From contig JBEWZL010000239.1 in assembly GCA_045837725.1 (NCBI GenBank), positions 124,001-188,000 on the forward strand: a DNA stretch of 64,000 nt, given 5' to 3'. This document shows positions 56,045 through 61,598 of this stretch, piece by piece. Made by a program: the position numbers and the translations under genes. A model generated the notes under the pieces. That model searched no databases. It saw only the letters and a list, made by a program, of their open reading frames with translations, and was not told the origin of the DNA. The stretch comes from Vermamoeba vermiformis. Its lineage: Eukaryota. Every line of letters begins with the position of its first letter. Within the stretch, counting starts at the first letter, position 1.

Positions 56045-58937
56045 ATGGAGGAAAATTGGAGAAAACATTATGAGAAAGCGAAGCGAGGCGCGCTTATTAC
56101 AATTAAAAATTACACAAAAAATGTATTAGATCGTGTGAGCTATTCACTGGACCATGGCAAATGGACTCTGCTGCCTCAAGGTATTAATTAAAATATTAAT
56201 TAAATTTCAGATTCGTTTTGGAGACATAAACCACGCTTTTGCAAATTATAAATCAATCATATAATTCTATTACATTCGTAAATATTTTCTATGTTGCAGA
56301 TCTGGTATATTGAATGGCAGATCTAATTTATTTTTTGACAGACTCGATCCCGGCGTACTCTGAAGTCCAATTTTGTTCTGTTAGCAGTAGTAAAGGATTA
56401 ACAGGTATATTATAATTAGTATATGATTAATTGATTTATTTTACTGAAATTATTGAATCAACCTGTCAACTTATCGGATTTACTATTACAGGTACGTCAG
56501 GAAAGGTTACATATAGACTAGCAGATAATCCAGCAGTTAAATTTGAATTTGTATGGGACAATCCTTGGATGGAAAGCAGATCTGCTGTTTGTCACGTCGT
56601 CGGTACGTTAGCTAGATCCAACTAACAAACACAAAAATTCAAAAAAATCATATTTATAGATCTATAATATGTAATCCTAATATATATGATATTATAGGCG
56701 GTACAGATCGGTTTACTGTCGAACAAACGACGAATAAGCGGTCTCAATATGAAGTTACTTGGGCGATCGAACAGATCAGCACTGCAAGTCCTCTGTCGCG
56801 GTCTTCTGGAAATTTAAACGTATCTAAGATATTAAATGAAGAAGGTAAGCATAATATTAAGTATATAAGCCTTATACGGCATTAAAGTCTGAAAACTTAA
56901 ACCTTGATCTGGATCGGGTAAATAACCAATTCATTACTTCAAAGAAAATTACCGACGGGATCGCTTATACTCATATAATGCTATTTATTTATGATATCGT
57001 AACATTGAAACTCGGATCTACCGTACAAAGAATTGGATTCGAATAGCGGACTAATTCTTTTGATTCTCGTAGACTACAAAGGAGTCAAGCTGGCACTCGA
57101 CGATCAATTCGATCTATGGAAGAGTGAACAACAACAAGCGAACAGAAGTGTCAATTTTGTCATTGAAAACGAGTCAGATATCGTGTTCAAGCGACAGTTG
57201 CACAACTTGAATCAAGGTGTGTGGAGCAAATATCCGCCTGAAGTCATTGCTGGCGGATCCACGGTCGAGTTCGGATGCAGAAGGTATGTTAGTCATACAA
57301 CAGTATAATCATCATACCTATATTAACGAGTCGAAACACGCACTCTCACAACTATAATTTCACGCATGAAAAAATTTGAAATTTAATCGATATATTAATA
57401 TCTAACGTAAATACAGTGCATTTATAACACAATTTTTCAATTTTTTCGTTTTTCGTGAATTTTTAAGACGGAAATTTGACGTGTGTTTGACACGACAACT
57501 GACATCGGTTCCAGTGATTCACTGGTCGGCGGTACTTCGGGCCGCATCACGTACTCAGCGCCAGAGAACGTGGACGTGGTGACACTGACCTTTGACAATC
57601 CACTCGATGGCGACAAGGCATTTGACGCGTGGACCAAAACACCGATATTTGACGTCGAAGTCGAGACCGATGAAGAACATAATGCTACTGTGATATATAG
57701 GATAGCTTGTTTATCAAAAGAAGATTATTTAGAGAAATTAGAAGAAAAACAAAAATTGAAACGAACGAGCGAAGATTGGGATCGATCGGATTCCGAGGGA
57801 AATACTCCACGAGGTTCAATTACACCCAGAATTAGTTCTACTAATCTCACTGATAAACCAGTTATGCCACCGACAATGTTATTACAGCCACAAGCAAGCA
57901 GTGACAGTATTTCCAGCGCAGGCGTGAAGGCACTCAACTTGTCGGCATCAGCGCTCAAACGCACGAGCTCAAAGATGCCGGATCTAGTCGCCATTGCACG
58001 CGCAGTAAGTCCCTATAATATAAAACTATAGTATATGAGCTTATAGTAATGTCTATATTGTGATTATAGAGGATATTTGGCGTGCCTCTGAAAGTTATCA
58101 TTGAACGCGAAAACACGAGGACGCACTTGCCGCTCATTGTAGAGAAGATTGTAGAACATTTAACCAAATATGGTAATGCTATTTATACTTACCCCGGGTC
58201 CTATTATATATATCTAATATGAGTATTATATTAATAGGCTTTGATGACCCATGTCTGTTTAGAAAACCTGGCTTGTTACACGAAGTTAAATTTTTGCGAA
58301 ATCAATTCGACGCGAATAGCAAAGGTAATAATTATAATATATATATTATTAGTAAACAATAATAGGCATACTAATTAATGTCCCTTATTGTAGCTTCATT
58401 GGATTTCAAAAACTACTCGATCCATTCGTTAGCGCATCTGCTGAAGATCTTTTTAAAAGAATTAGAAACGCCGATTATTCCGCTCAATTTAAATGTTAAA
58501 TATTCTAGTTATATTCGTAAGTAACAATTAATCGAGGAACTGCTTTCTTCACCTTAAAATATTTCGATCCGGTACATCCGCTCGAAATTCTTTTTTCCCC
58601 ACGAAATATTATGAAATTATCGCCATATGCTAATTATTATTTACTAGTGAGTCACTTGGGCGCTAATAGCACAATGTCATTCGGCATATTCATGTCCGAG
58701 TTTTTGACGCAGATCCCAGAACTCAATTTGACGCTCTTCCAATACTTGTGTAAATTTTTCGTATTATTGGTGGAGAAGGGCAAACACGACATAGACTCAT
58801 TAGCGAACATATTTGGTCCGTTGATCTGCAGAGAAAAACCTTCGTCTGATCCGAACATTCCCGATTTGTCGTTAGCAGTACGAAGGACATTAAGGGATGT
58901 AATTATGAACTATCGATCAATAAGTCAATTCCAATAA
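56045..58937 (+). CDS. Two aegerolysin/Cry34-like beta domains + C-terminal RhoGAP
   Basis: Two repeats of I.N.....R....L..G.W...P...I....GTSG.[VI]TY....[WF]DNP; then IFGVPL, PLIVEKIVEHL, LFRKPG, LAHLLKIFLKELETPIIP, LANIFGPLI. Confidence 0.8.
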
Positions 58938-59026
58938 ATCCTCTTTTGTTACATTAACCAACTGGGTCTTGACTAACACTGCCTTTTTTTTTGTTACTTT
59001 GAATAATTAAAGTTTATTTTTCTAGC

Positions 59027-61598
59027 TCACTTGTTCTCAACAGTCTTTGTCCTCAAATTTGTCTTCTGCTTTCTGGAGTAAGTTAGTACCTCCTTAACTT
59101 TTGGAAGGTAGCAAAACTTACACTTAATTTGTGCCAATGATGCAAATGTAGGCCCAAAGTACTCCTCCATGTTATTCTTGTGCACAACATACATGTTGGG
59201 CTTGAGCTTGAGGTCAGTGTGTGGATGTCTGTTGGAGATCATGCCAAACACCCAATCATAGCCAAGGTGAGCCAAGTGAGTGTTGAATAGTTTCTCAGCT
59301 TTTTCATACTCATAATCAAGTTCTTCTTGGGTCAGATCTTTTGTACTGTCATTGGAAGTGTACTGTTGAAACTCAATGACATTGTTAGACAGCCAATAGA
59401 ATGCATCAACTCCAGTTGTGTTAGTATCATTTTGACACACCAATGACTTGAGTGGAGCTTTGAAGCTTCTACCATCAAGCAATGAGGTAACAACAGGGGA
59501 TTCTTCATCTCCTTTGAATGAATTGGGAAATTGTTCCAAGAGCAGCACTGGCTCAACCACACGTTTGTCCACAAAGTAAGAGTGGCACTTAGATCCAAAT
59601 TCAGCCCCAGAGTGAAAGTCTTCTGTTACAAAGCACTATTAGATACATCAACTGCACATTGGTACTTACTTAAATTCATTGGTGTTGGATTGCCTGCAGA
59701 GAGGGCACCAAGTTTGAAAGCAATGTATTTGACATTGAAGGTCGCCCATGAATCCAGTGTGTTAGCCCCCTTGTCATCCCATGAGAATGTGAAGAGCTTG
59801 TGTGCATACACAAAATAATCATCAAATTGGAGCCAAGACAATAGATAGGCTGGGGGAATAGCAATATGCACACCCATGTGATTGGCCTTTCCAAATAGAA
59901 GGTATCCATTCCTAGCTCCATCTTCAATTGTTTCACCATTGGGTAACTTCTCTGTAAAGGACACAATTGCTTTTGAAAGACACATCTCAACCAATGCCCT
60001 TGCAGTGTCTGCACCAGGGGTGCCAATCTGATATGAGGACAGCAAGTGTTGTTTGATTGCATTGAATGGCAGGCAATCAAGGTTTGGCAAGCTCTTGTTC
60101 AGGACTTTTGCATGTTGATTGACAAGAGCCAAAAATTGTTCCAGTAGTCTTGGTGGGTTGACTAAATCAGCCAAACACTTTTGAAACTGTTTTGAACCGC
60201 TCCAGTTCAATAGGTAAGGATAATCCTTCACCATAGCTAAAATAGGAAAATTTGGTAATTTGCTAAATGATGGTACTGGCACATACCATCAAGAATAGAG
60301 GTGACATCGCCAAGAGACAGAAGACAGGGGAAAACACTGAGAGGGAACCCTATAGTACTGATAACCTCCCTTAAGGGAGTGTGAATTGTACCTGGAAAAA
60401 ATGATTAAGTTGACTGCAGAGTAACATTACCACTCACCTGCAAAGAGCACAAGTAACCTCTTGTTGTGTGCGTGCACTGCTCTTGAAATCGATGTTACAA
60501 GCTTTCTGAAGCCATCTTTGCAGTAATCATACAGACTATTTATCTCATCAATGGCCAGCACAACATTCTTAACCCCAAGCTCTGCAAATCTGTCCATCAG
60601 TGTGCACAACTGCAAATGAGATTAGAAGTTGTATGACTAGTGATAATTTGTACTGTCATGTTTTGCCAATGTTCAAAATTGAAATCTTGCAAACTTTCAT
60701 GGCCTGTGTTGTAATAATTCAACAATATTCTTGCCACAACACTTCCAGAGATGTCAATTAATTTGAATAAATCATTAACTTCATTGTTTGCTACAACATG
60801 TTGTTAGTTGTTACTGGGATTGCATCATTTTAACTTACTAGGACGTGAGCCATTCCCATAAGTAACATACAAAAGGATAGTCTCATCACTTAGCAATTGA
60901 CTATCCAATAGTGCATTTTCTTGTTTTTTTGCACAATCCTATTTGCACACATTAACATGTGAAGTCACTAAATATGCAAAATTACCTTCAACATGTTCAA
61001 GGTCTCAAGCAGCATGCGTGTTTTGCCAGTGCCAGGGCCTCCATAGATGAATGGTATGAAGAGCTTTGGCGAAGTTTTTGCAAATGTAGAATTAGCTGCA
61101 AAGTAGAGTTGATCTTTGATCTGATGAGAGGTGCAGTAACGAAATGAGCCTCCAAATGAATCAATGACCTGCCAAATGGTCAAATTGGTTCAAAGTGAAG
61201 GCACAATAAGGTAACATACATCAGTGACTTTGGTGGATTGAGGCGGGTGAGTGACAATCTCTTTCATCCAGCTCACTTGTTGTTGCTGTGGAGACTGCTC
61301 TGTGACAAAATATTACAAAAATAATAATTTTACATTACCAAATTGATTTTGAACGAACACCCGAGCAAAACAATTTTTAAAACGGAGTAAATCCGGATTT
61401 TATACAATATATTGTGTGTAAATACACAGTTAATTAATTACCAATTATTAGTAGTCATAATAATAAACACCTACCTGGATCGAGTTTCATTCGTTTGTTT
61501 GGATTCGCATCCGATGGTACATTGTCCGCAGGTCTTTTCGTCGCCACTATAAAGCCGTAATTAATTCTTGAATTAGTTAATTATTATACCTACTCACT
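59027..61598 (-). CDS. P-loop NTPase + putative PD-(D/E)xK nuclease, Crinkler/RHS (CR)-type effector-like
   Basis: GGPGTGKTR (Walker A), VLAIDE (Walker B), LKDFHSGA, QNDTNTTGVDAF..IEFQQY, YFGPTFA. Exons splice into an open frame. The 5' end is inferred. Confidence 0.6.

Follow-up and report, generated by a model that had tools for sequence, protein, structure and literature searches.

A CpG desert over an orphan gene in a 64-kb window, and its possible origin in gene-specific CG methylation

The 64-kb window analysed here (contig JBEWZL010000239.1, positions 124,001 to 188,000; all positions below are those of the window) contains one segment that is almost devoid of CG dinucleotides. This CpG desert spans positions 58915–61353 and has 11 CG in 2439 nt, corresponding to a CpG observed-to-expected ratio (o/e) of about 0.12, in a window with an overall CpG o/e of 1.13 and a GC content of 41.9%. 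The desert is genuine and far beyond chance, and it covers most of a minus-strand gene from a rare protein family. We propose that it formed in place, through CG methylation specific to this gene and the decay of the methylated cytosines by deamination, an explanation whose chances we put at about even. Because the window contains an array of fungal Zn(2)-Cys(6) genes, ABC transporters, a CLU/eIF3-p135-like gene, and a mitochondrial carrier, its DNA is read as fungal. Below, the desert is called the block, and the rest of the window, from which all background densities were taken, is called native.

Depth, composition, and limits of the desert

Positions 58920–61350, for which the first-pass annotation had estimated about a dozen CG dinucleotides in approximately 2.4 kb, contain 11, with a CpG o/e of 0.117 and a GC content of 39.4%. 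At native density, 124.8 CpGs would be expected in the block, and the Poisson probability of observing 11 or fewer is 2 × 10^−39. Native windows of equal size (n = 1130) have a minimum of 98 CpGs, a mean of 125.7, and a standard deviation of 9.4. All 1-kb windows outside the block have a CpG o/e of at least 0.67, most of them 1.0–1.5, and none of the 20 native open reading frames (ORFs) scored is below 0.84, which places the block outside the normal range of genes in the window. The three longest CpG-free runs, of 648, 455, and 354 nt, are all located in the block, and the maximum elsewhere is 188 nt.

The missing CG dinucleotides are balanced by TG and CA, the abundance of which had already been pointed out. 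Both have an o/e of 1.55 in the block and 1.08 in native sequence (z = +6.6 each, compared to z = −7.2 for CG). The deficit of 113.8 CG is offset by gains of 76.6 TG and 55.1 CA, about 132 in total. The TG and CA gains are symmetric, and the GC content drops from 42.0% to 39.4%. Apart from these three dinucleotides, the block has a native character: when the 13 others are considered, 24 of 187 native windows deviate at least as much from the native average. The o/e of TpA is 0.58 in the block and 0.77 in native sequence. Codon choice shifts from NCG to NCA with nearly constant sums (Ala 0.46 vs 0.57, Pro 0.47 vs 0.51, and Thr 0.41 vs 0.43 in block and native sequence, respectively) and from NNC to NNT. 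The CGA share of arginine codons decreases from 0.28 to 0, and 4 of the 17 arginine codons of the block are still CGN. Arginine makes up 2.6% of the residues encoded by the block, compared to 4.7% in native ORFs, and its content is low throughout the family (2.7% over 15 relatives). The low arginine content is compatible with CpG loss and could equally be a trait of the family.

The depletion affects introns as well as exons, as the first-pass annotation had stated, and extends into the 3′ untranslated region (UTR). The seven introns of the block (333 nt) have no CpG, compared to approximately 8.5 expected from the 25 CpG per kb of six RNA-supported native introns, and the 112 nt past the stop codon have none, compared to approximately 5 expected at native density. 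The non-coding block sequence of 499 nt is thus entirely free of CpG. All 11 surviving CpGs are exonic, and four of them belong to arginine CGN codons, in which both routes of CpG decay alter the protein. The exonic position of all the survivors, the four arginine codons, and the empty introns together form a pattern of long decay under purifying selection.

The outermost CpGs flanking the desert are at positions 58914 and 61354, in agreement with the abrupt return of CpGs described earlier for the last exon of the neighbouring gene and from position 61354 onwards. The 3′ limit encloses the 3′ UTR of the gene and the last 21 nt of the reading frame of its convergent neighbour, the stop codon of which is at 58935–58937. 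The 5′ limit is located somewhere in 61245–61353, which corresponds to the first CpG-poor exon or to the final 54 nt of the 175-nt intron preceding it. The desert covers the whole gene except for the promoter and the first exon or exons. The previous description of the desert as exactly one gene body is nearly accurate, except that the 21 nt of the neighbour's frame are included and the CpG-rich upstream exon at 61475–61546 is left out. A 31-nt direct repeat at the edges (58949–58979 and 61330–61360; 71%) is at chance level, with P = 0.09 against shuffled sequences and P = 0.11 against real-sequence controls.

The gene in the desert and its relatives

The model of the block gene was built by hand and checked by a script. 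It is composed of eight exons and seven GT..AG introns of 44–51 nt, which give one open frame of 645 codons on the minus strand; the desert comprises exons 2–9, the introns, and the 3′ UTR. The CpG-rich upstream exon (61475–61546, minus strand) joins the block in frame, includes an ATG at 61490, and encodes KRPADNVPSDANPNKRMKLD, which we take to resemble a bipartite nuclear localisation signal. The same exon contains a short upstream ORF (ATG 61522), the TGA of which overlaps the in-frame ATG 61490. An uncertain further exon upstream (61598–61741, minus strand), an open frame in which a start codon was not found, would be in phase via a 51-nt intron at 61547–61597. The 175-nt GT..AG intron (61300–61474) that holds the 5′ edge of the desert has 4 CpGs, all at or beyond 61354.

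The first CpG-poor exon (61220–61299) contains an internal ATG at 61267 and joins the upstream exon in frame. The next exon (60986–61168) encodes a Walker A motif, GGPGTGKT (61019–61042). It is followed by the exons at 60839–60938, a continuous ORF with GT..AG borders, and at 60654–60790, placed according to the gene model. The exon at 60438–60609, also from the gene model, encodes VVLAIDEI (60541–60564), presumably a Walker B-like motif, and that at 60287–60391 has a homologous stretch in the relative P0012. The large exon at 59670–60236 encodes 188 amino acids, which probably form a helical, possibly winged-helix, middle part of the protein. The last large exon (59027–59622, 197 amino acids) contains the conserved stretch D..E.Q..K (59354–59413), which we read as a PD-(D/E)xK-like nuclease motif, and ends with a stop codon at 59027–59029 if it is read through. 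A candidate eighth intron of 49 nt that contains TACTAAC (59073–59121) would, if spliced, put a T|AA stop over the junction, and the called ORFs of relatives continue past the same point. The lysine of the E.Q..K stretch is present in 7 of 9 aligned sequences and is replaced by threonine in the window copy and by asparagine in the closest relative, P0001. The clade of the window may have lost this key residue.

The P-loop matches of the block gene in Pfam (AAA_11, AAA_19, ATPase_2, and AAA_16) are all sub-threshold, the best being AAA_11 at 17.5 bits (cut-off 27), and a PADLOC scan gave only two P-loop matches with E-values of about 0.02–0.03. The two large 3′ exons (188 and 197 amino acids) have no match in Pfam, PADLOC, or the sequences of the PDB, and a longer word search with the 188-residue exon found none. 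The two AlphaFold models are poor (pLDDT of 38.6 and 52.0). Look-alikes of the middle exon according to a protein language model are ATPase_2, WHD_AAA_fung (the fungal AAA winged-helix domain), and nSTAND3, all scoring at most 0.83, and an atlas search gave hypothetical clusters of Mucoromycota at 0.96 with low recognition; both results serve as leads only. The motifs suggest that the gene encodes an AAA+-like ATPase with a C-terminal half that is possibly nuclease-like. Its assignment to the CR type by the first-pass annotation could not be confirmed: the P-loop matches remain below threshold, and Pfam detected no Crinkler header (Ubl, PF20147) and 0 families at E ≤ 1 in upstream exon 61577–61741, the one scanned. 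Motifs of the LxLFLAK and HVLVxxP types were not seen by eye in a three-frame reading of 61280–62200; the Pfam scan covered the definable exons.

The introns of the block fit the native short-intron peak of 45–61 nt. This peak was obtained from a scan for introns joining ORFs, which gave 85 native candidates, 32 of them at most 65 nt long; the scan is crude, since it caught only 2 of the 7 block introns together with one that is false, and the majority of its long candidates are probably artefacts. The idea that the block introns are foreign because they are shorter than the six RNA-supported native introns (65–235 nt) was rejected, as short introns are common in native sequence. The block gene has no transposon domain, terminal repeats, or second copy in the window.

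The family of the block gene is rare. A HMMER search of 1.84 billion representative proteins with the 188-residue exon gave eight matches, one with 81% identity and the others with 33–42%, and four were obtained when the last exon was used in a word search. All the matches are exon-sized fragments from unannotated contigs. The called ORFs of the relatives extend across the intron positions of the window gene (P0010 and P0012) or a few residues beyond them (P0001–P0004 and P0009); these read-on ORFs and the common exon ends therefore suggest that the relatives are intron-bearing eukaryotic genes of the same structure. Within one 90% cluster, P0003 has arginine where P0005–P0007 have tryptophan (NRLPQ and NWLPQ), a single case of the kind of difference that a CGG to TGG transition at a CpG would give.

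The nearest relatives of the block protein are 78–84% identical to it, compared to 96% for the neighbouring mitochondrial carrier, encoded 4 kb away at 54462–55397, the best named matches of which are approximately 50% identical. The homologue of the last exon, P0002 (78% identity), and that of the carrier, P0017 (96% identity), are each recorded on one Logan contig of 18,738 nt, presumably the same one, and a relative thus probably carries a homologue of the block gene beside the same carrier gene. P0001 and P0009 are recorded on a contig of 2,577 nt, and P0004 and P0014 on one of 39,217 nt. Searches for homologous DNA in metagenome contigs with the family alignment (423 pattern matches), in viral contigs (56 pattern matches), and in metagenome contigs with the carrier protein (121 pattern matches) yielded no confirmed hits.

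The stretch 57500–62800 was compared with the sequencing runs X1, X3, X6, and X21. A single 24,090-nt Logan contig from X1, which may be the source sample, covers the whole stretch with 0 differences. X3, an independent water metagenome, contains a 430-nt contig across the 3′ junction (58570–58999) with 3 differences, and other identical contigs on both the block and its flanks. There are two lineages in X3, one identical to the window and the other about 4–8% diverged on flanks and block, with small indels at 58334, 58380, 60661, and 62141. A piece of the diverged lineage at 60741–61012 has 22 differences in 272 nt. Among the 14 differences listed for its pieces over 60575–61012 (47 more over the whole compared stretch are outside that list), two have CG where the window has TG or CA (60659 and 60949), and one has CA instead of TG (60674–60675). 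These few, partly listed CG differences are suggestive of CpG hypermutability.

The run search listed no RNA run with the block, and the RNA-derived sequences that were compared match the flanking genes only. The five X6 contigs, judged to be RNA, are all at least 99% alike, and the 45 X21 reads include 0 at ≥99%, 8 at 95–99%, and 37 at 90–95% identity. The zero depth over 58916–62101 in both runs is not counted as silence: the X6 depth is only 3–6, and contigs cannot show absence, whereas the X21 strain is 5–10% diverged, so that reads from a faster-evolving copy could fall below the 90% cut-off.

Possible origins of the desert

The first-pass annotation had attributed the desert to long-term methylation aimed at one gene, and this is still the best reading, given the balance of TG and CA, the native character of other features, the nature of the surviving CpGs, and the probable synteny. 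The block would be the transcribed part of a single resident gene, an intact and fast-evolving orphan that has long been subject to CG-specific cytosine methylation in this lineage, while the surrounding genes were unmethylated. Deamination of 5-methylcytosine (5mC) to thymine would have converted CpG to TpG and CpA across exons, introns, and the 3′ UTR, and the only CpGs to persist would be those maintained by selection on the protein. Methylation would start near the end of the first intron and stop at the 3′ end of the transcript, sparing the CpG-rich promoter and first exon. The maintenance enzyme may be of the DNMT1 or DNMT5 type, and a guide would direct methylation to the gene. Since the desert is still empty at neutral sites after divergence from its relatives, the purging of CpGs may be continuing; at assumed rates, a block unmethylated since the split should have regained approximately 4–5 CpGs in its 499 non-coding nucleotides.

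The kind of methylation envisaged resembles that of transposable elements (TEs) and would silence orphan or selfish genes. It is unlike the gene-body methylation of many housekeeping genes with steady expression in animals and plants, because none of the 20 native ORFs is below 0.84, the lowest native 1-kb window is at 0.67, and the target is an orphan. A bolder version is that, in a fungus whose ordinary genes lack CpG methylation, an intact, selected, toxin-like ATPase-nuclease gene is kept in a guided 5mC "cage" that is almost sharp to the base pair, begins in the first intron, spares the promoter, and has lasted for the time needed to remove nine tenths of the CpGs. The gene would be kept in reserve, unexpressed, until conditions such as infection, mating, or conflict call for it. 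We regard this version as distinctly doubtful; if it were true, CpG deserts would offer a way to find caged genes in any fungal genome from the sequence.

Several observations weigh against methylation in place. Methylation is deduced here from a mutational footprint, and the support for it is indirect. Gene-body methylation has largely been lost in fungi, in which 5mC is specialised for transposon silencing, according to a 2026 review (PMC13297926). There are 6 CpGs in the 72 nt before position 58914 and then none for 648 nt, and the transition at each edge is more abrupt than is usual for chromatin marks that spread. The 5′ edge at or in an intron, with a CpG-rich exon in frame upstream, is what a swapped-in cassette would look like. 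GGG accounts for 18% of the 34 glycine codons of the block, compared to 3% of 321 in native sequence, and AGG for 29% of its 17 arginine codons, compared to 6% of 282. These differences are not CpG effects and are the sole foreign-looking trait of the block. Furthermore, the synteny is read from the equal 18,738-nt size of two records, not from contig sequence, and the direction of the CG differences between the window and the diverged X3 lineage is unpolarised.

The second-ranked explanation, which we consider possible but unlikely, is an imported cassette. According to it, a CpG-poor segment evolved elsewhere, either within this genome, in a methylated compartment or a paralogue, or in a closely related CpG-methylating fungus, and was inserted as a unit or by recombination in the first intron, so that its CpG poverty was inherited and not maintained here. 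The razor-sharp edges, the position of the 5′ edge relative to the in-frame upstream exon, the GGG and AGG usage, and the rapid divergence of the protein, in comparison with the carrier, are all in line with such an import. In addition, genes of the Crinkler type are said to swap C-terminal modules at a recombination hot spot (in a part of PMC5289972). Against it stand the other 13 dinucleotides and the intron lengths, the native-like values of which make a distant donor unlikely. A paralogue was found neither in the window nor, at ≥90% identity, in X1 (two records compared). The homologue probably located beside the same carrier gene in a relative, the presence of the 3′ junction in an independent water sample, the absence of any regained CpG in the non-coding sequence, and the edge repeat, which is no better than chance (P about 0.1), also argue against a cassette. 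The possibility of import from a CpG-poor donor or compartment, raised by the first-pass annotation, is thus weakened and retains second place. A horizontal island from a distant donor, in particular, is unlikely given the native dinucleotides, the intron lengths, and the probably syntenic homologue. If the block were an imported cassette after all, it would document module exchange in a rare ATPase family.

Other processes of CpG removal, either a CpG-preferring deaminase acting on duplicates in the manner of repeat-induced point mutation (RIP) or selection against CpG in the transcript, are improbable. CpG-directed, RIP-like mutation has been reported in some basidiomycetes, and processes limited by homology yield sharp edges. 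However, the frame is intact over 645 codons, and intron positions are kept in relatives, which speaks against a mutational burst. The low TpA is the opposite of the outcome of classical RIP, and CA and TG are raised, not lowered. Moreover, the block has no second copy in the window, and a 4-kb tandem duplication with 79% identity elsewhere in the window keeps its normal CpG content. Selection at the codon level is contradicted by the introns and 3′ UTR, which are as depleted as the exons. A mis-joined assembly or contaminant fragment, suggested by the abrupt jump in composition at both ends, is scarcely credible in view of the X1 contig that spans the stretch without differences (although X1 may be the source sample), the X3 contig that crosses the 3′ edge, the identical X3 contigs on block and flanks, and the in-frame splicing of the upstream exon into the block.

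Genomic setting, implications, and comparison with known systems

The convergent neighbour of the block gene (57480–58937, plus strand) has a normal CpG content and splice joints present in RNA-derived contigs. Its earlier designation as RhoGAP holds at the level of motifs, and the Pfam search of two of its exons gave no match at E ≤ 0.001. A tandem array at 654–21240 on the plus strand comprises nine genes that all encode a fungal Zn(2)-Cys(6) domain and have normal or high CpG (o/e of 1.05–1.5); it includes the 4-kb segmental duplication (12072–16083 and 14130–18112). Positions 27500–29500, with long GC-rich exons, have a mild CpG dip (o/e of 0.67–0.75) over an ORF of 707 amino acids without a Pfam match and the CLU/eIF3-p135-like gene. 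TG is raised in the dip (1.3–1.4) and CA is not (0.9–1.0), a strand asymmetry that is unlike the desert. Four ABC_tran domains and one ABC_membrane domain at 36697–45083 on the plus strand, interrupted by many predicted introns of 45–60 nt, probably belong to two adjacent ABC transporter genes. No transposon domains were found in the 30 native ORFs scanned.

The desert is unusual in its depth (o/e of 0.12), its sharpness, its restriction to one non-repeated target in a gene-dense, CpG-rich setting, and the intact and conserved state of that target. If methylation in place is the correct explanation, the lineage possesses, or for a long time possessed, a system of CG methylation that selects individual genes within very sharp limits, and purifying selection can act on a gene throughout a long period of methylation. 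The locus would then be a concrete one for asking what guides fungal 5mC to a non-repeated gene, and a sliding CpG o/e would be a cheap means of screening unannotated fungal genomes for silenced genes of the orphan, selfish, or toxin-like kinds.

Among known processes, RIP likewise alters one segment of a fungal genome by C-to-T changes within sharp bounds, but it wrecks reading frames and raises TpA, whereas the frame of the block is intact and its TpA is low. The decay of vertebrate CpGs via 5mC deamination, summarised in part of PMC13297926, also balances the loss of CG by similar gains of TG and CA and leads to a CpG o/e near 0.1–0.2. The geometry is inverted, since vertebrates have CpG islands in a depleted genome and the window has one depleted island in a CpG-rich genome.

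The encoded protein can be compared with Crinkler/CR effectors, the C-termini of which combine NTPase, helix-turn-helix, and restriction-endonuclease-type domains (Zhang et al. 2016, as summarised in a section of PMC5289972). The likeness includes the P-loop NTPase, the helical middle part, the C-terminal conserved acidic motif, the possible nuclear localisation signal, and the fast evolution of the family. The block gene differs in having neither a header domain nor a significant match to a CR or restriction-endonuclease model, and for these reasons it is not classified as CR-type. AACRNL, a crinkler-like selfish gene of fish, is repressed by H3K27me3 (according to parts of PMC12957317). It shares with the block gene, as interpreted here, the idea of a header-less, crinkler-like gene of toxin origin that is held down by the chromatin silencing of the host. 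The host kingdom, silencing mark, and enzymatic domain differ, and there is no link to a transposon in the present case.

Transposons are the sole targets of 5mC in Spizellomyces, a chytrid, and in other early-branching fungi (PMC12695648). The methylation proposed here would be similarly selective for unwanted DNA and absent from expressed genes; unlike the targets in Spizellomyces, the block has no transposon domain, terminal repeats, or second copy in the window. Judged by titles and the openings of abstracts, supplements excluded, the papers found in a literature search include none on a CpG-depleted island over a crinkler-like or orphan gene in a fungus. In Rhizophagus irregularis, nanopore sequencing showed CG methylation to be bimodal, with a highly methylated class of TE-like profile that makes up 18% of the genes (Dallaire et al. 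2021, PMC8647823). Orphans account for 80.2% of this class and crinkler genes for 0.4%, and the authors note that a gene need not be repetitive to belong to it. The part of that paper on gene methylation makes no mention of a desert as deep and sharply bounded as that of the block; furthermore, 5mC was measured there over 18% of genes, whereas here there is a footprint on one gene in a 64-kb window. The arrangement is nevertheless alike, with most genes unmethylated and some heavily CG-methylated along the gene, mostly orphans without known domains and few of them crinkler genes. R. irregularis provides the closest precedent, and the present case fits its pattern as seen through a mutational shadow.

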